Below, one piece after another: positions 46,163 through 63,447 of a stretch of DNA of 64,000 nucleotides (its first letter is position 1; each line of letters starts with the position of its first letter). Source of the DNA: Anolis carolinensis (taxonomy: Eukaryota). The notes beneath the pieces are model-generated. The model was not told the DNA's origin and made no database searches. It saw nothing but the letters and a program-made list of their open reading frames with translations. The stretch spans positions 272,661,749 through 272,725,748 of the forward strand of contig NC_085842.1 in NCBI RefSeq assembly GCF_035594765.1, read 5' to 3'. Both the position numbers and the translations under genes were made by a program.

Positions 46163-46210
<48 letters not shown>
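46118..46210. repeat. (TA)n microsatellite preceded by attcatataatat repeats
   Basis: Directly visible; forms the left flank of the hAT element. Confidence 0.95.
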
Positions 46211-46214
<4 letters not shown>

Positions 46215-46560
46215 TTGCTCAAATAATTCGATTTCCCCGTTACTCGTTACTAATTCGTTACTTTTGTAACTTGTGAAGCAATATACGACCTTGATTGTCC
46301 ACACGTCTGGATATCGTGGTTTCGAACCGCGACAGGCCCTTTTTCTTATGTCGTCATTTTTTTTCGTTGGGAAAAAAAGGTTTTTGCAAATCACCCAAAC
46401 TTGTTTAAGTGCACTGGGGCAACCTAGCGTGTTGTTTCCACCTTGTGGCCAATCAGAGAGCACGTTTAACCCAGGGGAGGGGCTAGTAGTACGTCCTGAA
46501 TGAAAAGAGCGTGCACGGGCGCCTCGTGGCTCATTTCGGGATCTGCAGAGAGAGGGTGGG

Positions 46561-47147
46561 TTGGGAGTGAGATTCCGCAGGCAGGCAAGATTGCTGCATC
46601 ACAGCTTCCTTGGCTGAGCTAGAGTTACAGATTAGAAGACCGGGAGAAAAGGTTGGGTGGGTGAGGTGGGGTGGGAAAGTGTTGGATGTTTCTGAATTTT
46701 TTTTTCCAAAGGGCCTGTGGCCTTTTTTCCCCACAAGCTTGGCGTTTGCCATTTTCCCACCAGGCCTGTAATTTTTCTGCTGCGCCATTTTGCCTGATGC
46801 GGGCGGGGTGGGCTTTCGTTTTGATTAGGAAACTTTTCTTTTTTCAACGCTAGTTGGGAGTGAGATTCCAGGCAGGCAGGCAGGCAAGATTGCTCCGTCA
46901 CAGCTTCCTCGGCTGAGCTACAGATTATAAGACCGGGAGAAAAGGGTGGGTGGGTGAGGTGGGGTGGGAAACTGTTGGGTGTTTCTGAATATATATTTTT
47001 CCAAAGGGCCTGTGGCCTTTTTTCCCCACAAGCTTGGCGTTTGCCATTTTCCCACCAGGCCTGCAATTTTTCTGCTGCGCCATTTTACCTGGTGCGGGCG
47101 GGGTGGGCTTTCGTTTTGATTAGGAAACTTTTCTTTTTTCAACGCTA
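46561..47147 (+). repeat. Tandem repeat, ~293-bp unit x2
   Basis: ttgggagtgagattcc at 46561 and 46854; both copies end ttttcaacgctag. Confidence 0.95.
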
Positions 47148-47149
47148 GT

Positions 47150-48106
47150 AGCAAAGTCTGGCAAAAGGATTGCACATCCCATCCTCCTCCGTAGAATAAC
47201 ACCTGTTTTTGGAAAAAAGGGACCCTGATTTTGGTTCCTTTCCTGCTCTGCTGCTCTAAAGGGCTTGTCTGTGCCAGGGCAGCAGTGATTCAAAAGCAAA
47301 GTCTGGCAAAAGGGTTGCACATCCCATCCTCCTCCCTAGAATAACACCTGTTTTGGGAAAAAAGGGACCCTGATTTTGGTTCCTTTCCTGCTCTGCTGCT
47401 CTAAAGGGCTTGTCTGTGCCAGGGCAGCAGTGATTCAAAAGCAAAGTCTGGCAAAAGGATTGCACATCCCATCCTCCTCCCTAGAATAACACCTGTTTTG
47501 GGGGAAAAGGGACCCTGATTTTGGTTCCTTTCCTGCTCTGCTGCTCTAAAGGGCTTGTCTGTGCCAGGGCAGCAGTGATTCAAAAGCAAAGTCTGGCAAA
47601 AGGGTTGCACATCCCATCCTCCTCCCTAGAATAACACCTGTTTTGGGAAAAAAGGGACCCTGATTTTGGTTCCTTTCCTGCTCTGCTGCTCTAAAGGGCT
47701 TGTCTGTGCCAGGGCAGCAGTGATTGAAATCAAAGTCTGGCAAAAGGGTTGTACATCCCATCCACCTCCCTAGAATAACACCTGTTTTGGGAAAAAAGGG
47801 ACCCTGATTTTGGTTCCTTTCCTGCTCTGCTGCTCTAAAGGGCTTGTCTGTGCCAGGGCAGCAGTGATTCAAAAGCAAAGTCTGCCAAAAGGGTTGCACA
47901 TCCCATCCTCCTCCCTAGAATAACACCTGTTTTGGGAAAAAAGGGACCCTGATTTTGGTTCCTTTCCTGCTCTGCTGCTCTAAAGGGCTTGTCTGTTCCA
48001 GGGCAGCAGTGATTCAAAAGCAAAGTCTGGCAAAAGGATTGCACATCCCATCCTCCTCCCTAGAATAACACCTGTTTTGGGAAAAAAGGGACCCTGATTT
48101 TGGTTC
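47150..48106 (+). repeat. Tandem repeat, 145-bp unit x~6.6
   Basis: agcaaagtctggcaaaagg..gcacatccc recurs every 144-145 bp with near-identical units. Confidence 0.97.
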
Positions 48107-48128
48107 CCCCTCTTTCCTTTCTTCTCAG
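48094..48128 (+). promoter_or_regulatory. Predicted 3' splice acceptor upstream of the transposase ATG
   Basis: Branch-point-like CTGAT, a polypyrimidine tract of ~23 nt and CAG ending at 48128. Confidence 0.45.
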
Positions 48129-48355
48129 CTGCTCAAGTAAGGCTTGCTGCAAATATCTTTCTCCTATATTAACCCTATCAAGGTCTGGAAAATACAGGTA
48201 TCCCCTTTTTAACGTATAACAACAAGAACAACTGTAATAGAAGGGTTTGCGGCAGTTCGACCCAGAACACATTGCCAATCAAGAAACAACACATCTTTCC
48301 CCCCAGTAACACAATACCTTCCTCCCTTCTGTAACCTCAAAACACTCCCGTTATC

Positions 48356-50830
48356 ATGAAGCGTTCAGCTGAACGCAGGTCTGGTGGAGCAAGTCCTGCT
48401 AGTGGTCAAGCAACAGCCCGGACACTGTGGGGGGCCAAAAAAGTTAGAGTGGGTCCCATCAGTCTGGAACGCAGAACGATGGGAGTGGGTGGACTTGATG
48501 AAGAAGCTGGCTGTTCGACTGCTGAAAGTTCACAGCCCTCCACCCGGAGCCAGTTGTCGGTTGGAGCTGAGACAAGTGGACGATCAATGGAACATGCAGG
48601 TGTTGCCATCTTGGAACTACAGGTGGTGGATAGTGAGGATCTTGATAACCCCACCCCTCCACCCGCTACTGACAGTGAGGAGAAGGTAGAGGAGGTAGTA
48701 CCATCAAATCATAGACTTTCTCATGCTGCTGAAAGGGTGCCCACGACTCCTATCTCCGTGGGCGTCGGCACAGTGGCTGTGGGGAGGCCAAGGTCATATA
48801 TTTGGGACCATTTCCATGTCCACACTCAGCGTGCCACTTTGGCAGTTTGTAGACACTGTGGGGCAAATATCAGCAGAGGCAGAGACCTGAGACATCTTGC
48901 GACCTCGGGGTTGAGCTCTCACATGAAGCGACACCATCCCTCGATATCGGTAGGAGGGGGAGCTGCAAGCCCTTGCAGTGGCAGCATTAGCACACAAAGT
49001 TCTCCTGGTGTAGATGGTGGAAGGCAGACACAGTCCACCTTGGAGGATTGGGGCATGCCTTTAGCCAGGAAGAGAACGGGGGAAACATTACCGACACCCC
49101 AGCAGATAACCCAAAGTGTGGGAGAGATGATGGCCCTTGATCACCATCCCTTCCGCCTGGTTGAACAAGAAGGCTTCGTCCGCCTTATGAAAGGCCTGTG
49201 CCCCCGCTACAAAATCCCCTCCCGTCACACCTTTTCCAGAAAAGTTATTCCCGGATTGTACGAGGGCTGCAAGGAACGCATTATCCAGATGTTGCGGAGT
49301 GCCATGGGAGGACACATCCATTTTACCTCTGATATTTGGTCAAGCTTGGGAGGAGGCCATTCCTACCTCTCTCTCACGGCACATTGGTGGGAGAAGGAAG
49401 GCAGTATGGATACATCCCATCATTGGGCACTCCTCGCTTTGGAGGTAGTTGATCATGATCACAAGGCAGAGACCATCTGCAGCTATCTGGGAAACATGAT
49501 GGGGGAGTGGATGCGGTGCAGGCCGGAAGAAATGAGGAGGGGCTTCATGGTGACTGACGCTGGTAAAAATATGATCAAAGCGGTTGAAAGTGCAGGGTTT
49601 TTGAATGTCACCTGCATGGCCCACTTGCTTCACAATACCGTCAAGGAAGGTTTAAAGAGCCCGGAAGAGCAGCCGGCCAGCACCGCAAACATCGCCCTGC
49701 TGATCGAGCGCTGTAGAAAGATCGCGGGCTACTTCCACAGGAGCATCAAGGCAGCCCGGCAGCTGAGAGACAGGCAGAGCCTTGAAGGCCTCCCGCAGCA
49801 TAAGCTGCTCCAGGACGTCTCTACCCGGTGGAATTCAACCTATAAGATGCTCGAACGCATGGTCGAGCAGCAGAAGGCGGTACACGGCATCTCCCTTACA
49901 TTGGTTGCGCCTGTTAGCAAGCTTGTTCCAACTAAGCAAGAGTGGGACACCATCTCCCAGCTGGTAGACGTCCTAAAGCCATTCAAACATGCCACAGAGA
50001 CCCTTTCGGAATCAAAAGCCCTTCTTAGCCAGGCAGTGCCCATAGTCTTGGGGCTAAGGAGGCACCTAGAAAGGCTTGGGGCCGGTCGAACACTGGACTC
50101 CCTGGCTGGACCGCTGACACCGCCGGTCCAGGAGGTGGTGAGGAGGTTGTCCTTTGCTGTACGGAAACGCCTTGAGCCACTTCTTTCCAGCAAGGTCCAT
50201 ATGCTGGCGGCCTTGTGTGATCCACAGCTAAAGTACGTCTGCCCAAAAGACTTTACTGTATGGAAGGCCCAACTAGTTAACCTTGTGAGGGAGGTCTTTG
50301 CTGCCAGGGTGGGGGAAACGGGCACAGTGGCCCCTCTACCGGAAATGCCTGCCACCCCCAGCACTAGCGCTAGTGGCAAGAGTGATAGTCCCGGGGAGCC
50401 GGCAGGGGGTTGCCGTAGGGTTACGGATCTCCAGCCGCGACCAGGAAACGCTTTCTTTGCAGAGACGGTGGCCATACTAGCCTGCTCGGAAGATTCCTCT
50501 TTGCTGGCTTCTGCGCAAAAGGTAGACTCGGCCGAGTGCTCGGTCAACAGGTACTTTGAGGAGCCTCCTGAGATAATTTCTTGTGATCCATTGGCCTATT
50601 GCGCTTCACGTGATCACATGTGGCCGGATCTGTCGCACGTAGCCCGCCAGTTTCTCAGCTGTCCGCCCACCAGCGTGCAGAGCGAAAGGGTCTTCAGCCT
50701 AGCGGGAGATGTAGTCACGCCCCACCGCAGCTTGCTGGACCCTCAAACAGTTGAGAAACTGGTCTTCCTGAAGGCCAACCTTCCCGTGTTGAATTACCCC
50801 GATTTGGATTTTGACACCGACGCCTCCTAG
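48356..50830 (+). CDS. hAT (Ac-family) transposase, 824 aa, ZBED4/ZBED6-like architecture
   Basis: BED finger (IWDHF..AVCRHC..ISRG..LSSHMKRHH), DDE triad (FTSDIW, MVTDAG, SERVFS), CxxH motif (CMAH), TRWNS and a C-terminal hAT dimerisation domain. Confidence 0.95.
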   Translation: MKRSAERRSGGASPASGQATARTLWGAKKVRVGPISLERRTMGVGGLDEEAGCSTAESSQPSTRSQLSVGAETSGRSMEHAGVAILELQVVDSEDLDNPTPPPATDSEEKVEEVVPSNHRLSHAAERVPTTPISVGVGTVAVGRPRSYIWDHFHVHTQRATLAVCRHCGANISRGRDLRHLATSGLSSHMKRHHPSISVGGGAASPCSGSISTQSSPGVDGGRQTQSTLEDWGMPLARKRTGETLPTPQQITQSVGEMMALDHHPFRLVEQEGFVRLMKGLCPRYKIPSRHTFSRKVIPGLYEGCKERIIQMLRSAMGGHIHFTSDIWSSLGGGHSYLSLTAHWWEKEGSMDTSHHWALLALEVVDHDHKAETICSYLGNMMGEWMRCRPEEMRRGFMVTDAGKNMIKAVESAGFLNVTCMAHLLHNTVKEGLKSPEEQPASTANIALLIERCRKIAGYFHRSIKAARQLRDRQSLEGLPQHKLLQDVSTRWNSTYKMLERMVEQQKAVHGISLTLVAPVSKLVPTKQEWDTISQLVDVLKPFKHATETLSESKALLSQAVPIVLGLRRHLERLGAGRTLDSLAGPLTPPVQEVVRRLSFAVRKRLEPLLSSKVHMLAALCDPQLKYVCPKDFTVWKAQLVNLVREVFAARVGETGTVAPLPEMPATPSTSASGKSDSPGEPAGGCRRVTDLQPRPGNAFFAETVAILACSEDSSLLASAQKVDSAECSVNRYFEEPPEIISCDPLAYCASRDHMWPDLSHVARQFLSCPPTSVQSERVFSLAGDVVTPHRSLLDPQTVEKLVFLKANLPVLNYPDLDFDTDAS

Positions 50831-51390
50831 AACAACAGCTGTCCTCCTTTAAGCAGCTCTGCTTCTGATTAACTTTGGCTATTTCTGTTGGGGGGGGTGC
50901 CCCTTTGGCCTATGTCCAACAACTCTCTCCTCTATCCTACTATGCTTTCCTTCCTCTCATCCCTTCTGTTCTCGTCTTTATCATCACACACCGTTGCCCA
51001 CTTTCGTTTTTGGGTAATTCAATCTCTAGGGGCCGTTCCCTGAGGTTCTTTAGGTTTTGTCTCCTGTAATACTGATTCTGGATGGGAAGAAGGATATTCT
51101 GGGGGAACTTAGTCCATAAAAGCCAAGGTAGGAAATGCAACCGCTTTGGGTTCAGAATGGATTAAATTCAATTCTCTACCCTTTTTTTATCAAAAAATAT
51201 TTCGGGAATGAGCCATGACTGTTAGGTCTTCTCCAGATTCTCGCAGCTTCTGTACAGAAAGAACATTGTTATAATCGATGTGGATCCTTCGGTAAGACAT
51301 ATTTGGTGAAGGAATACGGCAGAGTCTCACTTTACAGAGATAACGGTCCATCAGAACCTTTGTGGCTGTGTCTTGCCGCATTAAGTAGTA

Positions 51391-52209
51391 CACCTCGGCC
51401 TTGGCCACCACTTCTCAAAATTTTTCTCTTTCACTGTCCCATCGCCTTGAGTGGGTGTGGTCAACGCAGTGGCCGCGGGACGGCCGCCCTAGGGTCCCCT
51501 CGCCCTCTGGCCACGCACACGGACGGTGCTGTTTGCCCGTCAGGGCGTGTGCCTTTGCGGCTGCTAGTGACCTGTGGGCGCAGGTTCTGTGGCGTGGGAA
51601 CTTCAGTTTGCTGGCTTGTTGGTAGGACAATAGAAGAGGGTGGAATCACACCGCAGAAAGCAGGACACCTCGGCCTTGTCCACCACTTCTCAAATTTTTC
51701 TTCTTCCACTGTCCCATCGCCTTGAGAGGCTGTGGTCGACACTGTGGCCGCGGGACGGCCGCCTTATGGTCCCCTCGCCCTCTGGCCGCGCACGCGGACT
51801 GTGCCGTTTGCCCGTCAGGGCGTGTGCCTTTGCGGCTGCTAGTGACCTGTGGGCGCAGGTTCTGTGGCATGGGAACTTCAGTTTGCTGGCTTGTTGGCAG
51901 GACGATAGAAGAGGGTGGAATCACACCGCAGAAAGCGGGACACCTGGGCCTGGCCACCATTTCTCAAAATTTTTCTCTTTCACTGTCCCATCCCCTTGAG
52001 CGGGTGTGGTCGACGCTGTGGCCGCGGGACGGCCGCCTTAGGGTCCCCTCGCCCTCTGGCCGCGCATGCGGACGGTGCCGTTTGCCCGTCAGGGCGTGTG
52101 CCTTTGCGGCTGCTAGTGACCTGTGGGCGCAGGTTCTGTAGCGTGGGAACTGTTTTTTGCTGGATTGTTGGTAGGACGATAGAAGAGGATGGAATCACAC
52201 CGCAGAAAG
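51391..52209 (+). repeat. Tandem repeat, 275-bp unit x3, GC/CpG-rich
   Basis: cacct(c/g)ggcc at 51391, 51666 and 51941; units end ggaatcacaccgcagaaag. Confidence 0.97.
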
Positions 52210-54309
52210 TCTTTCACTCTGAGCTAAGACTTGTAGTCTTCTCCGATCTATGGAGAACTCTTGGATGGATTCACAAAAGAATTCCCTGTCGGACATCAAC
52301 GGTGACATTTCCTTCAAGTCCATGCCATCCTCATGCTATGCCTGTAATTTCACTACCTCCTTGAAGTGGACGGGCATTAAAACATGGAGGATGGACCAGT
52401 TGGATCTTCTTACACTCCCAGGCACTGTCCTGTTTTTCAAAAAGCAATTATTTTCAAAAGTGCCATTCTTCCCACGCTCTGCCTTCCTTACGGTCAAGCT
52501 CTCACATCCACAGGTTGCTGGGGTATGGCATTGCGATGACAATGCGAGTATGCGGTCCTCCAATGTTTGCGTGAAGTCTCTGCTCTTATTTTGTCAAGTG
52601 TAGACATAGCTCTGCAAAACCTCTACTAACTTGCAGGCCACAGTCCGCACCTACAGTGATATGTCGCAAGAATAAATAAAACGTCTGTCAAACCCTCCCC
52701 ATCCAATCCATGTTGTTGACAGTTATAAATCTGTGTGGTTCCCTTTGGCTTCCTTCTCTTACAACCCAGCTTTGGTCCTTTCTTCTTTCACCTTTGAGAG
52801 AAGGCTCCTCTGCCCCTACTCTCTTTCAGCCAGCAGACTGTTATCTCATACCATAGGTTGTAAATGTGCCTTTCATAAATTTTAAATCCTGCCTACAGGT
52901 CCTCTAGCCACGCATGTCGCATTTAATGTTCCACACAAACAGCTAGATGATTCCAGAGGCTGAACTTATGCGGCCCTGCCGCAACCCGTTCCGAATCATG
53001 AAAACAGCGGTTGATCCGTTTTCTGTTCCCAGCATGTCAACTAACACTTTTCGTGGGACAGACTAGGTGACTTGGAATTCCCAAATAACCCAGCACATTC
53101 CATTAATTATCCTCCAAGCAGTTCAAGGCTTTGAAGAGAGTATTCAACATGGCCGACGATGGTGTGACCCCTTGCAGCAGCTTGCCGAGTGACCGATCTG
53201 AGAATACTCTTCCTCGAGGCCAAACTCCCGGTCCTGGAATATCAAGAAATCCCTTCGAAGCGAGGAGGACTCTCAGAGAGTTTATAAAACGATCAATGTT
53301 AAATGATTAAAAAAAATTCTATTTCCCACCAACATCTCCCTGCGTGGACTCGGTGCGGACTACTTGGGGCAGCGGCCCAAGCAACATAAGGACAAAATAA
53401 AATAAAATAATTTAGAATTAATTTTTTTTAATGAAAGTAATAAAATAATTTTATGTCTTGACATCATAAAATATTACGATACTTGCAGAAATGTCTGCTG
53501 TGCAAAAGTATCAGGTACACTTTTCCAACACTTTTGCTGAAACAGTCCAGGACAATTCTTAGCGTTTTGTATTTGAAAATGAGGACTGTGTTTTGACGGA
53601 TGAGACGAAAGGTGGTTTACAAGCCAAATTTGTTAACGCAGCCATCGTTAAATGTGGGACACCCTGCCCAAAGCCTCTTGTCATTTAGGATAAAGAAAAC
53701 ATTTTATTTATCTCCCACCCCTTTACAATGCTTTTACAATATGGGATAACTGAAATCCCACAATGACAGGGATAAACCTTTTTTTAATGGATCCCAGCCA
53801 TTGCCTGCTACAAGTTTTATCTCTATGTGTGTGTCTGAGAGGATAAGACACAGAAGGTAAGTATGTGATGCTAATCTTCTGCAGACCCATAAGTAGAGAA
53901 ACAAACCACTCAGAAACTCTGTATTGCTATTAAAAACAATGAGTTATGTCTTCATGGTTTCTTTTGTCTCAACATTTGTGCTATGTTTTAGTTCTTTGGA
54001 TTCATTTCTACTCCATAAAGACAATATCTTTCATTATTTTACATCCACAACTTTACTGAAACTGTATACCAACAGAAGTCATTTCCCTCTTTCCAGCTCA
54101 GCTGCTAGAGATCTTTTTTTTTTAAATTTTTATTTATGAGTGTTTTGTGATACATAAAACAAAAGGGAAGGAAGAGAAAAAAAGAAGAAGAAGAAAAAAA
54201 GCCCCACCCCTCTTGACCTTCCAGAACTTTTACATGACAACATTTTTAACTCTATCTTAACGGCGTCCATGGGGATAATCCCAAGGTAATTTCATACCAT
54301 AAATCGTCT

Positions 54310-57300
54310 TCAGTTCATTCTTTCTTTTTCTATGTATTCACTCAGTAGATTCCATTTTGTCTCTCGCCTGGTTGCACTGTCCTGTTTTAAAAATTGAGTT
54401 AGTAAGTCCATGTTTCTGATGTCCAAAAGTTTCAGAAACTAGTTTTCTTTAGGTGGGATTTCTTGTGACTTCCACATTTTTGCCAGGCTTATCCTAGCTG
54501 CCGTCACCATATATGTAAATAGCTTTTCTGTATTATAGTCCATCTGAAAGTCCGTTATTCCTAACAGGAAATACTCCGGCTTGATATCGAATTTCATTTT
54601 GATTATTTTCTCCATTTCTTTATGTATAGTTTGCCAATATTTTTTGACCTTTTTACACCTCCACCACATATGCATGAAATCACCTATATGCTTTCCGCAT
54701 TTCCAACATTTGTCATCCCTTTTCCCTTTACTCATTTTTACAAGCTTTTCTGGGGTTAGGTACCACCTATAGAATACCTTGTACCAGTTTTCTTTTATTT
54801 CTGCCGCATATGTGTATTTGATTTTTGTTTTCCATATTTTTTCCCATTCTGACATGCTTATCGATCGCCCTATCTCTCTCGCCCACTTCGTCATTACCTC
54901 TTTAACCTGCACATCTTCCGTTTCCCATATTAACAACTGATTGTATAATATTTTAATTATTTTCTTTTCTGATTTTAACATTTTATCCCAACAGGTTTCA
55001 TTCTTTTCAAATCCTATCTTGCAATCCTCTTTAAAACTTTCATTTATTTGCCAGTAATTCAACCATGTCATTTTTGGTTCCAGCTGTCTTATTTCTTCAT
55101 ATCTTTTCAATTTAATTTCTTGATTCTCTACCTTTAACATCTGTCCATACGTTAGCCAATTCTCTCTTGGTGTTTCCCTTCTGTGCTCTGCTTCTAAAGG
55201 TGAGTACCACATCGGGGTCTTTGCATAAAATCTTCTTTTATACCTATACCAAGTTCCTATCAGGGCTGATCTTAGGTAGTGGTTTCTAAAGTTTTTTTCC
55301 TTTTTGTCTTTTTCTTTCCATAAATAGCTATGCCATCCCTTGTTTAAATCATATCCTTCCAGATCTAGTGTTCTCTTATCTTTTAGATTGGCCCAATCTC
55401 TGATCCAGTTCAATGCTGCTGCATCGTAGTATAATTGTAGATCTGGTAACCCCAGCCCTCCTCTTTTCACGTCATCTTTCAAATGTTTTAAAGCAATTCT
55501 GGCCTTTTTACCTTCCCACAAAAATCTACTTATTTCTTTATGCCAGTTTTGGATCATTTTTTTATTTTTTAGGACCGGTATATTTTGAAAAAGAAATAAA
55601 ACCTCCGGCAAAATTTTCATCTTAACTACAGCTATTTTACCCAATAATGAGAGTTTAAGAAACCCCCATTTTTTCATTTTTTCCCTTATCTCCCTCCATT
55701 TCTTTTCATAATTGTTTTTTTGTAGCTGAGCATTACTTGCCATCAGCTCTATCCCTAAATATTTTATCTTTTTCACAATCTCTATCCCCGTTTTCACTTC
55801 AAGATTTTCCTTGTTCTTCTGTGACATATTTTTTGTTAAAATTTTTGTTTTTTCGCGGTTGATCTTCAATCCTGCTACTTCCCCGAAGTTCCCAATTACC
55901 TCCCACCAACCTTCAAACTGCTCTAGTGGATTCTCTATCAAGCAAACTACGTCGTCGGCAAAGGCGCGGATTTTATAGTTATGGTTTCTTACTCTTAAGC
56001 CTTGAAGATCTTTGTTTTTCCTGATTGCTTCCAATAGAACTTCCAGAGTCATCACAAACAATAGCGGGGAGAGTGGGCACCCCTGCCTTGTTCCTTTGTT
56101 TATCTTAATACTACTTGACAGTTTCCCATTTGTTATTATTCTTGCCGTTTGTTGAGTGTAAATTGCCTTTACTGCCTTTATAAAGAAAAAACCTGCATCC
56201 ATTTCTCTAAGAATTTCTAACATGCAATACCAGTTGACGTTATCAAATGCCTTTTCAGCGTCTAGAAATAAAAATGCTATTTCCTTTTGAGGATTTTTAT
56301 CGTAATATTCTATGGCATTCAAAATGTTTCTGATGTTTTCCTTCATATGTCTACCTGGTAAAAAGCCTGTTTGATCGTTCTTAATTCTTTCCTTTAGTAT
56401 CTCTTTAAGTCTTGCTGCTAAGATACTTGTAAATATTTTGTAATCGGTGTTCAGAAGCGATATTGGTCTGTAATTCTTTACCTTGGTATTATCTGCCTTT
56501 TCCTTTGGTAATAATGTAATATTTGCACTTTTCCAGGTTGCTGGGATTATTCCTTCTTCTAATATTTTATTCATAACCTTTTGGAGTGGGGTGGTTAAAA
56601 TCTCCTTAAATGTTTTATAGTATAGCATTGTGAATCCATCGGGTCCCGGTGCTTTATTAGATGGAAGTTTTTTGATGACTCTATTTATTTCCTCTTGTGT
56701 TACCTTCCTGTTTAGAGTCTCTCTCTGGCTTTCAGTGATCCTTGGAATTTCTTGCTTTCCTAGATATTCTGTAATCCTTTCTTTTGGAATCTTATCTTCT
56801 GAATATAATCTTTCATAATACTGTAGGAATTGCTTCTCTATATCCTCATTATTGTAATACGTTTTCTCCCCTTCATGTATCTTATTAATTATATTTGCCT
56901 GCTTTTTTTTATTTATCCTCCTTGCCAACCATCTACCTACTTTATTCGCGTTTTCGAAATGGTATTGTCTAGTATATTTTAATTTTTTTCCTATTTCCTC
57001 CACATGCAATGCCTCTATTTCTTTCCTGGCCACTTCAATTTTTAATTTAATTTCTTTATCTTGGGGTTTTCCTTTTAGTTTAGTTTCTAATTTCTCCATG
57101 TCCTCTAGTAAATTCCTGTATCTTAAAGATCTTGCTTTGTTCATTATGACATTATGCTGTATCATCAGTCCTCTTATGTACGCCTTGCTGGCGTCCCATA
57201 TCACTTCAATTGGTGTATCCTCCTCCTTGTTGTTTTCGAAGTATTCGTGTAGTAATTCTCTATATCTATTTTGGTCCGATGCCTTTTTTAATAGTAAATC

Positions 57301-58060
57301 ATTTATTCTCCAATTAAATTCTTTATTTCTCTCCCCTTTATTCTCTATTGTCATTTCTAAAGGAGAGTGGTCTGAATTTAGTCTGGGCAGTATTTTAATT
57401 TTGCTTACTTGACTCGTTATTGACTTTGTACCCCATATCATATCTATCCGAGTCCAAGTTGAGTGTCTGTGAGAGAGAAATGTATAATCTCTTTCGTCTG
57501 CATGTTTAAACCTCCATATATCTTGTAGTCTGAGATCTTCTTTCATTTTTTAAATTTTTTGGGCAATTCTCCTATAGCTTTCCCTTCCCTAATTTTCCCC
57601 TGTTTAGATTTATCCAATTTTGCGTTCAATACCCCGTTAAAATCTCCCATTAGTAGAAGGTCATCATATTCCTGTTCCAATATTTTTTCAAATAACATTT
57701 CTACAAACTTTGTTTTACTCCCATTGGGGACGTATATATTACAAATTAAGATTTTCTTCCCTTCCCTTTCTATCATGACCCCTAACATCCTCCCTTCATG
57801 GTCGTTGAATATTTTTCTAGAAGGAATCTTGTCATTCACATATGTTACTACCCCCCTTTTTTTTCCGCGCACGATGCATAGTATGTTGTTCCTAGATTCT
57901 TTTGTGTTAAATGTGCAACATGTCTGCTTGAAATATGTGTTTCTTGCATACAAATCACATCATATTTCCCTTTTTTCAATTGATGCCATATTTTACTTCT
58001 TTTATTAGGAGAATTAAAACCATTAATGTTGTTTGAATATATTTTAATTCCTTGCGCCAT
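54310..58060 (-). pseudogene. L1 ORF2 (APE endonuclease, reverse transcriptase, CCHC), disrupted
   Basis: NINGFN, MQETH, MGDFN, RIDMIW, SDH, APGPDGF, YRPISLLN, GTRQGCPLSP, FADD and CWKC..H..C motifs. Two 1-nt frameshifts (~57860, ~57548) and a premature TAG at 54439-54441; the frame continues to TGA at 54310. Confidence 0.93.
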
Positions 58061-59129
58061 CGTCTTCTTTTACTGCACTAACCTTATCTACTATCCCTCT
58101 CTCGAAATCCATTAAATTTATAAAATCTTCTGGTGATTTTTCTCTTATTCTTTTCTTTTGTCTACCTATCTCTTCGTCCTTATCCCCTCCCTCCTCCCCC
58201 CTCTCTCCCCCCTCCCTCCTCCCCTCCTGCTCTTCTCCCCCTGCTCCCTTCCTCAGATGTTTGTCGTAAAAAGCTCTTGCTTTATGTTCACTTATTATCC
58301 AATGCCTGTTCCCTTCCCATGTCAGCATCAGGCCTTCCTTTTTCTCCCACTTAAATCTTATATTCCTTTTTCTTAATTCATCTGTCAAGAAAAAATACTT
58401 GCGTCTTTTTTCCAATACTGATACGGGGTGTTCTTTGAGTATTGCTATTTTGTTTCCTCTATCAATTGTTGGGTTGTTGGCGTTTCCCTTCAAAACCTCA
58501 TCTCTCAGATTCTTTTTACAAAAATGAACTAATACATCTCTTGGGGTGTTATATTTTTTGGCATAATTTGATTGTATTCTGTACACTCTATCTATATTGA
58601 TATCCACCCCTTCTCTTGTTTTTTGTGTAATATTTGATACAATTTCCACAATCTTGTCCCTTATATTTTCGTTTTTTTCCTCTCTTAGATTTCGAAATCT
58701 CAATTGGAATTCTTTTTCTTTTGATTCTAAAATTTCCTGCTGTGTCTTCACTATATTTATTGTTTTCTCAATTGCCCCCATCTCTTTTCTCAGGACTCCT
58801 TGTTGTTTTTTAATTATTTCCACTTCCTTTTCCCTTTCTTTACAGCCTTCTTTCGTTAGCTCTAAATCTTCTCTTATTCTATTTATTTCCTCCTTTACTA
58901 GAGTTTGTATTTCTTCCTTTATATCCCTTTTCATCTCTGTCATCTCTTCTCTCATCTTGAGATATTGTCTATCTTGTTTTTCCTGAATTTTAGTTACCTC
59001 TGTTTGTAATTTTAAAATCTCCATCATCACATCTTTGATGCTATACTCATCTGTCAGCGTTTCCTTTCTTACACTTATACTTCCTCTCCTTTCCTTATCC
59101 TTGTCTATCTTTGTTTTTGGTATATTCAT
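58044..59129 (-). CDS. L1 ORF1p (coiled coil, RRM, CTD), 361 aa
   Basis: Long E/K-rich heptad region, then LRFRNLRE, IDRVYRI and PRDVLVHF. It overlaps the ORF2 start by 17 nt. Confidence 0.9.
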   Translation of the reverse strand: MNIPKTKIDKDKERRGSISVRKETLTDEYSIKDVMMEILKLQTEVTKIQEKQDRQYLKMREEMTEMKRDIKEEIQTLVKEEINRIREDLELTKEGCKEREKEVEIIKKQQGVLRKEMGAIEKTINIVKTQQEILESKEKEFQLRFRNLREEKNENIRDKIVEIVSNITQKTREGVDINIDRVYRIQSNYAKKYNTPRDVLVHFCKKNLRDEVLKGNANNPTIDRGNKIAILKEHPVSVLEKRRKYFFLTDELRKRNIRFKWEKKEGLMLTWEGNRHWIISEHKARAFYDKHLRKGAGGEEQEGRREGGERGEEGGDKDEEIGRQKKRIREKSPEDFINLMDFERGIVDKVSAVKEDDGARN

Positions 59130-60354
59130 GGCTTCTAAAAATCCTTTCAGATACTCCCCTCTCTACTCCCCCACTCCTCCCCGTTCCCTCCCCCAAGGGA
59201 GAAAAAGACAAAAAAAAAAAGTAAGCCCCAATTCTCCCCTGAGAGAGCAGAGGAGTGATATGTTATTTTGATAGTGTTGGTACTACTACACTACACCACC
59301 CTCTGCACGCCTCCTTAATCCCTCCAGTCCACTCATGCACCTTTATCAGTATTGCAATACCCCATTTACCCTCCCAGTTTACGGTTCACCTCGATCGAAT
59401 ATTGCTCATTTAACAGGTATGATGTATCTTGACCTTTACTGTCCTCTATGCCTCGGCCACTCTGTTGGTCCTGAGGATCCTGAAGGCTTCCTTTTATTTG
59501 CCCTTGGCTTTCGGAGCTCCACGCCGCCGTTTCCTCCTTCCTCCTTACGCTCCCTCCACTCTTTCCTTCCCGCAGCGCCCTCGCGTCCTCGCGTCGCGTC
59601 ACGCCAATCTTTACGTTGCTGCGTTGCTGCGTTGCTGCGTCTTGCGTCTTACGTCTGACGTTTCCGTCATCCTGACATCCTGGTGTCCGACGTCCCGTTT
59701 CCGGCGTCCTGTGCCTCTCTGTCCGGCCCCGATCCGTCGTCTCCTCTCCTCCCCTCTCCTCACCTCTCCTCACCGGATCTTCCCTTCTTCCCTGCTGTCG
59801 GCCTTCTGCCACCGGTTAGTTGTTCAATTATTTATATTTATATTTAGTTTCCACCTTCCCGCTTGTTGTTCCCCCATACTTAGTCCATGTAACAGCAAAA
59901 TAAGGTGAAATAAGGTGAAATGAATTCAAAACAAACAGTCCTCACCTTCCCTTTAAGTCTTTGTATGTTGTATACTATCCTTGCGGACAATGCAAATTAG
60001 AGTCCAGTTCTCAGTTCCTTCCAAGCATGAATAGCCTCCGCTTTGCCGTTGTCCGTTTCTTTTTTCACGCAAAGTTCTTTTTTCTTCAATACCAATTCTA
60101 CCCTTTTTCTTCTTGAGTTTAAAATAATGGCAGGCGTTCTATCCCAGCCGTACCTGGGTGCCTCACCGCACTCCGCCTTCCTTAGCACCTCCTCACCTGA
60201 AGCCCTCTTATGAGGTGCCTCTGGGTTTCAGAAGTCCCACGGTTTCGCGCCTCACTGGTCTCCAACCATGAATGAGGGGGAGCCGCAAGCGGCTCGACCT
60301 GAGTGCCTGGTGAGGGCCGAACGCAAGATTTTGCAGAGAGATCCTCAGCGTTCG

Positions 60355-60389
60355 GCTGCGTCCGCCATCTTTGCCATTACCGGAAGTTC
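60355..60389 (-). promoter_or_regulatory. L1 internal promoter start with ETS-like (CCGGAAGT) and YY1-like (AAGATGGCG) sites
   Basis: Plus strand reads tccgccatctt...accggaagttc at the 5' end of the element, in CpG-rich context. Confidence 0.6.
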
Positions 60390-60469
60390 CAGCTGCTAGA
60401 GATCTTTAATAACACCAGACACACACAAGTCTTCCCTCTAGTTCAACTCCATAGAAACATTAACCTTAC

Positions 60470-60875
60470 ATCAGAGTCTTAAAACCTTCCACTTCCAAAA
60501 AGCCTTCGAGGACTGTGGGGTGGATCGCTGCCAGTGGAAGAATTGGTTGCCAGGCCAAGAGTATTTCACACTTTATTGATTTTTAACTCTCAAACTACCT
60601 CATCTCTGTGGAAGTATTCAGCCCTCGGCCCAGAGCCGTGTTTTTACACCACTGTTTTTTAAGCAGGTAATGCTGTATGCTGACTGTGACAGCTTTTTTA
60701 TTTTATGTGTTATTGATGCAACATTTTCTTTAATATATATAAAATTTTTGGGTTTAATTGTTCCCATTGTATTGTTGACAGGCACGCCCCATGGAAGCCG
60801 CTCAGAGTCCCTCCGGGAAGATGGGGCGGGGAATAAAAATAAAGATCTTACTGTTGTTATTATTATTATAATCAT
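60470..60875 (+). mobile_element. L2-like 3' end inside the hAT element
   Basis: LKTFHFQKAF-coding stretch, aagccgctcagagtccctccgggaagatggggcgggg hairpin and a (tta)n tail. Confidence 0.6.
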
Positions 60876-61036
60876 TATTGATGTGATGGTGGCCACGACT
60901 ACCCTGCGGCCAGCTTGCTTGTGTCCACCCGGTAGGGGTGCGGCCAGGGCCGCTGACGGTTTGCTGTCAGGGAGTGTGCCTTTGTGGCAGCTAGAGACTT
61001 TGGGGCTCTGGTCTGGTTGACACAGAAGTCAGTGGA

Positions 61037-61610
61037 GCTTGGGCCCACATTTCACTAGCAGACGTGAAGAAAACACGCCCTTCACCTTGGGTGGTGGGGA
61101 GGTGGTGTGGGGCCGGCCAACGGTGGCCGGCCGCCCTGGGCAGTGGGGCTTGGGCCCACATTTCACTAGCAGACGTGAAGAAAACAAGCCCTTCCCCTTG
61201 GGTGGTGGGGAGGTGGTGTGGGGCCGGCCAACGGTGGCCGGCCGCCCTGGGCAGTGGGGCTTGGGCCCACATTTCACTAGCAGACGTGAAGAAAACAAGC
61301 CCTTCCCCTTGGGTGGTGGGGAGGTGGCGTGGGGCCGGCCAACGGTGGCCGGCCCCCCTGGGCAGGGGGGCTTGGGCCCACATTTCACTAGCAGACGTGA
61401 AGAAAACAAGCCCTTCACCTTGGGTGGTGGGGAGGTGGTGTGGGGCCGGCCAACGGTGGCCGGCCGCCCTGGGCAGTGGGGCTTGGGCCCACATTTCACT
61501 AGCAGACGTGAAGAAAACAAGCCCTTCCCCTTGGGTGGTGGGGAGGTGGTGTGGGGCCGGCCAACGGTGGCCGGCCCCCCTGGGCAGTGGGGCTTGGGCC
61601 CACATTTCAC
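61037..61610 (+). repeat. Tandem repeat, 111-bp unit x5.2, G-rich
   Basis: gcttgggcccacatttcactagcagacgtg recurs every 111 bp with almost identical units. Confidence 0.97.
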
Positions 61611-62379
61611 CCTCTGTTTTTTTCTCTCTCTCTCTCTATAGGGGATGCATGCCGGTCAACTGTGGCCGGCTCAGGGTGGGGTCTTTGCTGCCTGCGGCTT
61701 TTTTCTTTCTTTTCTTTTTGCTGCCTCTAGGCCTACGTGGTCGAGTTTCCCACGATGCATCGCATCTCTCTTCTCTCGCAGCTGTCCCTCCGCACACGTT
61801 TGGGCAATTTTGCCCAGATCCTTCCTTTGGGGCGGGGTCCTCTGGTTTTTTTTTCTCTCTCTCTCTCTCTAGGGGATGCATGCCGGCCAAGTGTGGCCGG
61901 CTCAGCGTGTGGCCTTTGCTGCCTGCGGCTTTTTTCTTTCTTTTCTTTTTGCTGCCTCTCGGCCTACGTGGTCGAGTTTCCCACGATGCATCGCATCTCT
62001 CTTCTCTCGCTGCTGTCCCTCCGCACATATTTGGGCAATTTTTCCCAGATCCTTCCTTTGGGGCAGGGTCCTCTGGTTTTTTCTCTCTCTCTCTCTCTCT
62101 CTAGGGGATGCATGCCGGCCAACTGTGGCCGGCTCAGGCTGGGGTCTTTGCTGCCTGCGGCTTTTTTCTTTCTTTTCTTTTAGCTGCCTCTCGGCCTACG
62201 TGGTCGAGTTTCCCACGATGCATCGCATCTCTCTTCTCTCGCAGCTGTCCTTCCATTCATATTTGGGCAATTTTTCCCAGATCCTTCCTTTGGGGTGGGG
62301 TCCTCTGTTTTTTTTTTCTCTCTCTCTAGGGGATGCATGCCGGCCAACTGTGGCCGGCGCAGGGTGGGGTCTTTGCTGC
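61611..62379 (+). repeat. Tandem repeat, ~231-bp unit x3.3
   Basis: ggggatgcatgccgg at ~61641, 61872, 62104 and 62329; the (CT)n tract length varies between units. Confidence 0.95.
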
Positions 62380-63447
62380 TGAGATAGACATTGGGGTTCG
62401 GATCCCCACGGGGATTTTTTCTTTCTGCTTTTTTCTCCATCTTGGCCATTGCGGTTCGGATCACCACGTTGATTTTTTCTTTCTTTTGGCTGCAATTCTT
62501 CCCACTCCCCCTGCCAGTGCTTTTAATGGATCCAAACCCTCATGTGTATCTCTGCAGCTGAGCCCCCGCCCTACTGCTTTAGGGAAAGGGGCAGGGGTGT
62601 GGGATCCATGCCCCCATGTCTATTTCCGCAGTTTAAGCCCATGCCCTGCTACTTTGGGGAAAGGGGCGGGGGTGGGAGCCGGCCCACGGTGGCCGGCTCC
62701 CCAGGGGAGTGGGATCCAAGCCCCCATTTTGCCATCAGGCGATAAATCAAACCAACATCGCACAAATCTTACATTTCTTGGGAGGGGGAGGGGTTTGACC
62801 ACTGTGGTATAATGGCCTCCAATATGGATGCCTGGGGAAAGTCATTGCGCATTGTGGCAGGCAGCACAATGTGTCTCTTGGCCAATGGCCCCCAATGCCC
62901 TAACATTTTGACAGATTTACGGGCACTGAAACAATGTTACACAAGTAGAAGAAGGACTTTCACAGTGAAGGAACCCCTATTGAACAGGAAATAACAATTC
63001 AAAAGCAGGAACAGATTTTTTGCAATTGGTAAATAAAGTTTTTTTATATGAACTATAAAATTGCGCAATAAATCTTAGGAAAGGGCAAACGCTCTGCAAT
63101 TTTGCGAACAAGCAGGGTGGATTGTGTTCTCCCACTGTACCAAATTTGATCAGTATAGCTGAAAAAATGAGTGCAGGAGAGCCCCCTAACTCCCCCCCCT
63201 CTTGGGCTGTTTTTGGGGCACTGCGCATGCGCGTCCGCCATTAAGGAATTAATTTAGAAAATAATGAATTTTTATTAATTTCGAATTTTTTGGGGGGCAA
63301 AATTCGGAAATGACTTCAGAAACGAAACGCTACCCCCCTCTACTTTTGAAACGAGTTTAGAATCAATTTTTTCATGGATCGCTCAAGCCTAATATATATA
63401 TATCGTGAGTCCCTTTCTGTCTCAAATCTAGAGAGAAAAGTGGGGTG

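Follow-up and report, generated by a model that had tools for sequence, protein, structure and literature searches.

As judged from sequence comparison, a 20-bp palindrome that recurs in the right arm of a hobo_AC-type hAT DNA transposon of Anolis carolinensis is one inherited site within a module of ~110 bp. Copies of this module have arisen in both orientations, and some have grown into arrays. The pattern GCCGGCCA-N4-TGGCCGGC was scanned, with up to two mismatches allowed, over the 64-kb window (the whole stretch of DNA analysed), and 100 shuffles served as the control. All ten copies (10/10) reported in a first-pass annotation of this DNA were recovered at exactly the reported starts, with zero matches elsewhere in the window and 0.00 expected from the shuffles. 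The intact palindrome is confined in the window to two arrays, with units of 111 bp and 231 bp, and to one single unit of 110 bp. All copies lie 0.7-2.3 kb inside the right end of the transposon, the nearest being 694 bp from that end, and a scan of viral contigs with the palindrome pattern gave 0 matches.

Eight of the ten palindromes are exact. The remaining two carry one uncompensated change each: a C>T in the left arm at 61651 and an A>C at the innermost pair at 62678. The proposed check of arm covariation gave no support, with 0 compensatory and 2 uncompensated changes in the core. The four-base loop reads ACGG in six copies, ACTG in three and AGTG in one. It does vary, in three versions, but it is not free to do so, being identical (4/4) between the 111-bp and lone copies and matching the 231 type at 3/4 positions in the forward orientation. 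The lone copy at 62678 has, as first described, a longer stem of 11 bp (62674-62701), one pair of which is A-T, compared with G-C in the 111-bp units. This single paired change sits just outside the core and falls short of covariation, because the position that is paired in the 111 and 110 types is T-T in the 231 type.

The host transposon

The palindromes are carried by an element with the following parts.

46202-46209: left flanking copy of the 8-bp duplication ATATATAT
46210-63391, + strand: hobo_AC-type hAT DNA transposon, 17,182 bp (10,891 bp without the nested L1), identified by its TIRs, 8-bp duplication, length and transposase
46210-46220, + strand: left TIR, reading ATGGCTTGCTC; matches TAGGCTTGMTC at 9/11 positions, with the first two bases swapped, and adjoins a TA microsatellite
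48359-50830, + strand: single-exon hAT transposase of 823 aa in an open frame, with zf-BED and Dimer_Tnp_hAT (hAT dimerisation) domains
54114-60389, - strand: nested, full-length-looking L1-type LINE, with ORF1 and with an ORF2 that contains RVT_1 and whose frame is broken near 57545
63381-63391, - strand: right TIR TAGGCTTGAGC, 10/11 to TAGGCTTGMTC and 11/11 to the group B form
63392-63399: right flanking copy of the 8-bp duplication ATATATAT

By these features the element matches hobo_AC, which is described as a young autonomous hAT family of Anolis carolinensis with the TIR TAGGCTTGMTC, the target duplication NTRNNYAN and a length of 9-15 kb (PMC3014272). Species, TIR, duplication pattern, length and hAT transposase all match, and the assignment rests on the TIRs, duplication and length as compared with Table 1 of that paper, in addition to transposase identity. 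The copies of ATATATAT fit NTRNNYAN at both sides; as they lie inside TA runs, this match is weak. The transposase is 97-98% identical to several Anolis carolinensis proteins. The same paper describes internal hobo_AC DNA as quickly gained, lost and recombined, a further likeness to the present element, and ascribes the length of the family to captured genomic DNA. Non-autonomous copies of the transposon number ~3,300. A difference lies at the right end, where this transposase-bearing copy ends in TAGGCTTGAGC. The paper lists that form for families of the non-autonomous group B, and its authors believed the autonomous parent of these to be gone from the genome (PMC3014272).

The base swap in the left TIR lies beside an expanded TA run, and this copy may be immobile in cis despite its open transposase frame. 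The L1 is bounded by a perfect 18-bp duplication (54099-54116 and 60390-60407) and interrupts the right arm of the hAT; the segment 54099-60407 is a true insertion into the hAT, unlike the captured old fragments described for hobo_AC. Lizard relatives of the transposase (P0012, P0015, P0016 and P0026) are fused to PF01352 or PF02023 domains, which we take to be KRAB and SCAN; these fusions suggest domesticated versions that could read motifs of the family. Proteins with 48-62% identity to the transposase occur in A. sagrei. Scans of metagenome contigs yielded 0 matches to a 24-mer pattern from the right end and 48 matches to a transposase pattern, 0 of which were confirmed.

Repeat units sharing one module

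The whole element is rich in repeats (295 bp x1.9, 145 bp x6.6, 275 bp x3, 111 bp x5.2, 231 bp x3.3, 58 bp x2 and 75 bp x2). Those that bear on the palindrome are listed here.

51376-52209, + strand: 275-bp array x3, each unit with an inverted relative of the ~110-bp module in which the palindrome is at most a decayed remnant (z 8.1; HMM E 0.013-0.018)
60907-61015, + strand: single diverged module copy of the 275 type, with no palindrome (z 14.6; z 5.1 to 62359-62420)
61030-61610, + strand: 111-bp array x5.2, units 97% identical, palindromes at 61112, 61223, 61334, 61445 and 61556
61617-62379, + strand: 231-bp array x3.3, units 93% identical, palindromes at 61651, 61882, 62114 and 62339, each after a (CT)n run
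62190-62208, + strand: second, decayed hairpin in the 231-bp unit, with 7-bp arms (one mismatch) and a 5-nt loop
62359-62406, - strand: module of the 110/75-bp type in inverted form, lying immediately 3' of the final palindrome in the 231-bp array (z 11.1 and 14.8; HMM E 3.3e-5)
62528-62601, + strand: 75-bp unit, the 110-bp module without its palindrome segment (z 20.7)
62602-62711, + strand: 110-bp unit that carries the lone palindrome at 62678-62697 and is homologous to the 111-bp unit (z 14.3)

The units that carry the palindrome had been taken to be otherwise unrelated, and the alignments contradict this. The 110-bp and 111-bp units can be aligned over their whole length, and the upstream parts of the two still align when the palindrome is removed (p 0.037 and 0.007 under two scorings). 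In the 231-bp array, the 3' flank of the last palindrome, when reversed and with the palindrome excluded, matches the 110-bp and 75-bp units at the z scores of 11.1 and 14.8 given above, and the first ~20 bp of this inverted module is present in every 231-bp unit. An HMM built from palindrome-free 110/75-type pieces alone finds the inverted flank at the E value listed and recovers neither the 111 nor the 275 units at E<5; an earlier HMM contained 110-type sequence, which made its 110-type hits circular. A joint alignment preserves the order of module, palindrome and TCCCC(T)AG, with a G-rich spacer of ~29 bp missing.

Direct alignment of the inverted 231 flank with the upstream part of the 111-bp unit gave no match (p 0.75), so that the 231 and 111 types are linked indirectly, by way of the 110-bp and 75-bp units. 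The remaining ~170 bp of the 231-bp unit has a weak likeness to the module when its upstream part is compared with that of the 110 type (p 0.007-0.01), and no likeness was found to the upstream part of the 111 type (p 0.8-0.9). The 231-bp unit was also tested as a 115-bp dimer, and this was rejected (p 0.6). As the 111 and 110 units align fully and the 231 flank is the inverted module, the ten copies represent three lineages of one ancestral site. Simple common descent with alignment over the full length, which had been set against a special role for the palindrome, is largely borne out: the 110 and 111 units align in full, and the 231-bp unit has in common with them an inverted stretch of the module.

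On the same alignments, the 275-bp units and the copy at 60907-61015 are more distant relatives of the module without an intact palindrome. The palindrome was not found in the 295-bp, 145-bp, 275-bp or 58-bp repeats, the 145-bp array with its 6.6 copies being the largest, and these arrays, together with the module copies that lack it, undercut the suggestion that multiplying the palindrome is what the satellites are for. The left-arm arrays (46577-48107; 295 bp x1.9 and 145 bp x6.6) lie upstream of the transposase, are without the palindrome and have no significant likeness to the right-arm units. The second hairpin at 62190-62208 bears a weak likeness to the palindrome (p 0.01, for a comparison chosen after the fact).

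Conservation of the palindrome arms

The arms were set against the remainder of the units in one element copy and three lineages, for a motif that was chosen for being shared and that also anchors the alignments, so that the conservation values lean high. Within arrays, 1/32 arm columns and 29/302 other columns are variable, a difference that is not significant (p 0.19). The arms had been said to keep their CpGs, and they do so at 18/18 positions in the two arrays, but 30/34 other CpG cells are also kept, with 1 TpG/CpA among them. Between unit types the arms stand out more clearly. The 111 and 110 units are identical at 19/20 palindrome positions vs 55/87 elsewhere (p 0.003, or 0.033 in a permutation test on the best window). 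The inverted 231 type is identical to the 111 type at 16/16 arm positions vs 30/57 elsewhere, and across the three lineages 15/16 arm columns are invariant vs 21/57 elsewhere (p<1e-4). With each pair counted once the three-lineage excess has p 0.009, and against G/C columns only it has p 0.05. Measured against the nearest flanks, the excess has p 0.03 for the 20-mer and p 0.34 with pairs counted once. An equal mutation rate of arms and surroundings does not fit the comparison between unit types, where the arms are better kept; this excess weakens under stricter controls (p 0.009-0.34) and is not detectable within the arrays. The unit types probably do differ less in their arms than elsewhere, though to a modest degree, as far as these alignments indicate.

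Sibling copies in public runs

Short contigs from four public runs were aligned to 62150-63385, a range with the 111-bp type outside it. Joints going back from 62725 imply that the palindrome-bearing 110-bp unit occurs in tandem in sibling copies, with periods of 109, 112 and 97. An opposite-strand joint between 62366 and 62659 was present in 2/4 runs; its orientation is ambiguous, and it may merely mirror the homology of the inverted module. One contig, from 1/4 runs and thus weak evidence, joins the 75-bp unit to a shorter hairpin with the outer arms kept and the inner core missing. Among the 40 differences listed (39 places, with 63 further rows beyond the listing), 0 fell in the two palindromes, which is uninformative with ~1.3 expected. 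Terminal bins were 7-18 times deeper than palindrome bins in 3/4 runs and 0.9 times as deep in the fourth, where depth is not to be read as copy number. The region of the second hairpin (62190-62208) had the highest contig depth in 2/4 runs and formed a local peak in the remaining 2/4. A skipped microsatellite nearby may account for the very high depth at 62192-62233.

What may keep the palindrome intact

We lean, with a little better than even confidence, towards the reading that the palindrome was inherited and owes its preservation to template switching from one of its arms to the other, and not to a protein that binds it. The loop of the 231 type matches the others at 3/4 bases in the forward orientation and at 1/4 in the orientation of the module. 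A forward loop next to a reversed flank is the trace expected if synthesis switched strands, or the loop flipped, at the hairpin, on the strength of four bases. In the mechanism that we propose, the right arm would become single-stranded, during gap repair after excision or during replication, and the GC-rich stem of 8-11 bp would fold. Synthesis that switched strands at the folded stem would give the 231-type junction, with loop forward and flank reversed, and synthesis that slipped across it would give the 75-bp unit. One arm could be corrected against the other during synthesis, which would preserve the palindrome, and ordinary slippage or unequal exchange would multiply whole units with or without the hairpin.

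We infer this switching and correction from what is observed, namely the descent of the copies, the inverted 231 context, the loss of the site and the conservation of the arms. Counting for hairpin-driven rearrangement are the inversion in the 231 type together with the palindrome-less 75-bp, 275-bp and 60907-61015 copies, the sibling tandems of the 110-bp unit and the 62366/62659 joint, the single (weak) sibling contig with the outer-arms hairpin, and the fast internal turnover reported for hobo_AC (PMC3014272). In bacteria, perfect short inverted repeats are described as conserved, which the authors credit to template-switch correction (PMC5941160), and a clam MITE is described with a conserved palindrome in each core repeat (PMC3879986). 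The two uncompensated core changes mean that any arm-to-arm correction is incomplete. In addition, symmetric repair alone predicts paired changes and not constancy, which weighs against a self-templating hairpin, and selection explains at least as simply the 16/16 arm identity between the 111 and inverted 231 types and the 4/4 loop identity between the 111 and 110 types.

Selection could act on the 20-mer as a cis-regulatory site (an enhancer, a boundary or an anti-silencing target) for a host factor or for the element's own transposase, such that autonomous copies with more sites fare better, in the manner of VANDAL/VANC. We regard this as possible but rather unlikely. The arm excess between lineages (p<1e-4, and 0.009 with pairs counted once) and between the 111 and 110 units (p 0.003, permutation p 0.033) argues for it, as does the presence of the palindrome in two arrays here and in a third array in siblings, and there are precedents in VANDAL/VANC (PMC5735166) and in work on transposases as transcription regulators (10.64898/2026.08.24.746577). 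Against it, the excess drops to p 0.05 and 0.34 under the G/C-column and nearest-flank (pairs once) controls, the motif was picked for its conservation and anchors the alignments, the palindrome has been lost from other module copies, and a scan of the right arm for unspliced frames gave short ones, none of them convincing as a second gene. By analogy, a vertebrate hAT might multiply a 20-bp dyad in internal satellites because selection favours it as a docking site, where either its own transposase or a host factor would act as a regulator and keep the element expressed or free of methylation. This would be an animal counterpart of plant VANDAL/VANC; we consider this more specific proposal doubtful. 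A neutral palindrome, simply part of a duplicated module and better conserved through chance and ascertainment, is a still less likely account. It agrees with arms that are not significantly steadier within arrays, with the near-flank p of 0.34 and with a sample of three lineages only, and it sits poorly with p 0.03 or lower in most between-unit tests and with loop and flank orientations that disagree exactly at the palindrome. The likeness of the palindrome to CTCF, NFI and AP-2 sites, judged by eye, looked poor.

The other candidate functions are less probable again. The first-pass annotation had suggested a site for a dimeric protein, and as a subterminal repeat bound by transposase BED domains for excision the palindrome is very improbable. 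The transposase does carry a BED domain, and the BED domains of Hermes cooperatively bind a quasi-palindrome (PMC10368747), but position argues against such an end site: neither the left arm (2.1 kb) nor the final 690 bp of the right arm holds a TGGCCG half-site (0 in each), and the nearest copy lies 694 bp inside, compared with ~200 bp for hAT subterminal repeats. In Tol2, Tag1 and Ac, ~100-200 terminal bp are needed. In Hermes, the BED domains recognise a motif of 4 bp that lies at bp 11-27 from the left end (PMC10368747). The terminal 300 bp at the two ends of the present element share short CpG motifs, TTCG 5 and 5 times and AACG 5 and 3 times (as raw counts); CGTTAC also occurs three times at the left (46220-46300) and AAACG three times at the right (63100-63380). 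Going by sequence, such motifs are likelier candidates for BED-binding subterminal repeats than the palindrome is. An action of the palindrome as an RNA hairpin in a right-arm transcript is equally improbable. It would fit the stability of the 8-11 bp stem (z about -2 when windows picked by hand were folded as DNA) and the sibling contig that keeps a shorter stem, and it is opposed by the lack of any compensatory core change, by a lone paired change that lies outside the core and is T-T in the 231 type, and by Rfam, where no match came near the threshold (3 hits, 11-14 bits vs 70). A stem of 8-11 bp is also too short for a microRNA precursor.

Two other origins were dropped. A Helitron 3' end has a GC hairpin ~10 nt before CTRR, followed by a target T, at the element boundary. 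On the minus strand, the hairpin is followed after 9 nt by CTAG in 3/4 copies of the 231 type and 0/6 others; this CTAG is followed by A, and the sequence around it corresponds in the alignment to what normally flanks the palindrome on the 3' side in the 110-bp unit, and the candidate was rejected. An origin of the palindrome as an excision footprint was dropped as GGCCGGCC does not fit NTRNNYAN.

Relation to known systems

Among described systems, MITEs of the DTC84/pearl type (PMC3879986) resemble the present element in their short internal arrays, with one palindrome per repeat in a segment of low variability and an adjoining microsatellite, and the 231-bp unit shares the DTC84 layout of (CT)n followed by the palindrome. 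The DTC84 palindrome has been proposed as a hotspot of array change. DTC84 differs in being small and non-autonomous, in duplicating an AA target and in having a single type of array, whereas the element here is a coding autonomous hAT of 10.9 kb with an 8-bp duplication, several unit types and one palindrome in both orientations. The inverted repeats maintained by template switching (PMC5941160) are likewise perfect, short, conserved beyond expectation and without known function, but they were shown in proteobacteria and not in a vertebrate transposon. VANDAL/VANC targets (PMC5735166) are similar in that a motif is gathered in differing tandem repeats of non-coding transposon DNA; those motifs are 8-9 bp long, share one orientation and are bound by a separate element-encoded protein, for which the right arm here has no convincing unspliced frame. 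The BED-bound subterminal repeats of hAT elements (Hermes, Tol2, Ac; PMC10368747) have in common with it the BED domain and a palindromic arrangement of half-sites, and differ as short motifs within ~200 bp of the ends, compared with a palindrome 0.7-2.3 kb inside one end only.

The main text of PMC3014272 has 0 mentions of palindromes, hairpins or minisatellites and uses 'tandem' once, in an unrelated sense. The combination of module and conserved hairpin was not found in the literature searched, which took in the main text of that paper; its supplements may show the arrays. Searches with two arm strings returned matches that are unrelated by title.

If the hairpin reading is true, this very large hAT uses sequence of its own to rebuild its arm, and a short hairpin is the hinge on which inversions and deletions turn. 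Such self-rebuilding would add to the published view of hobo_AC growth by genomic capture and would not be a new kind of system. If the arms instead prove to be selected, they would provide a young family of vertebrate transposons with a regulatory site that is defined and open to testing.
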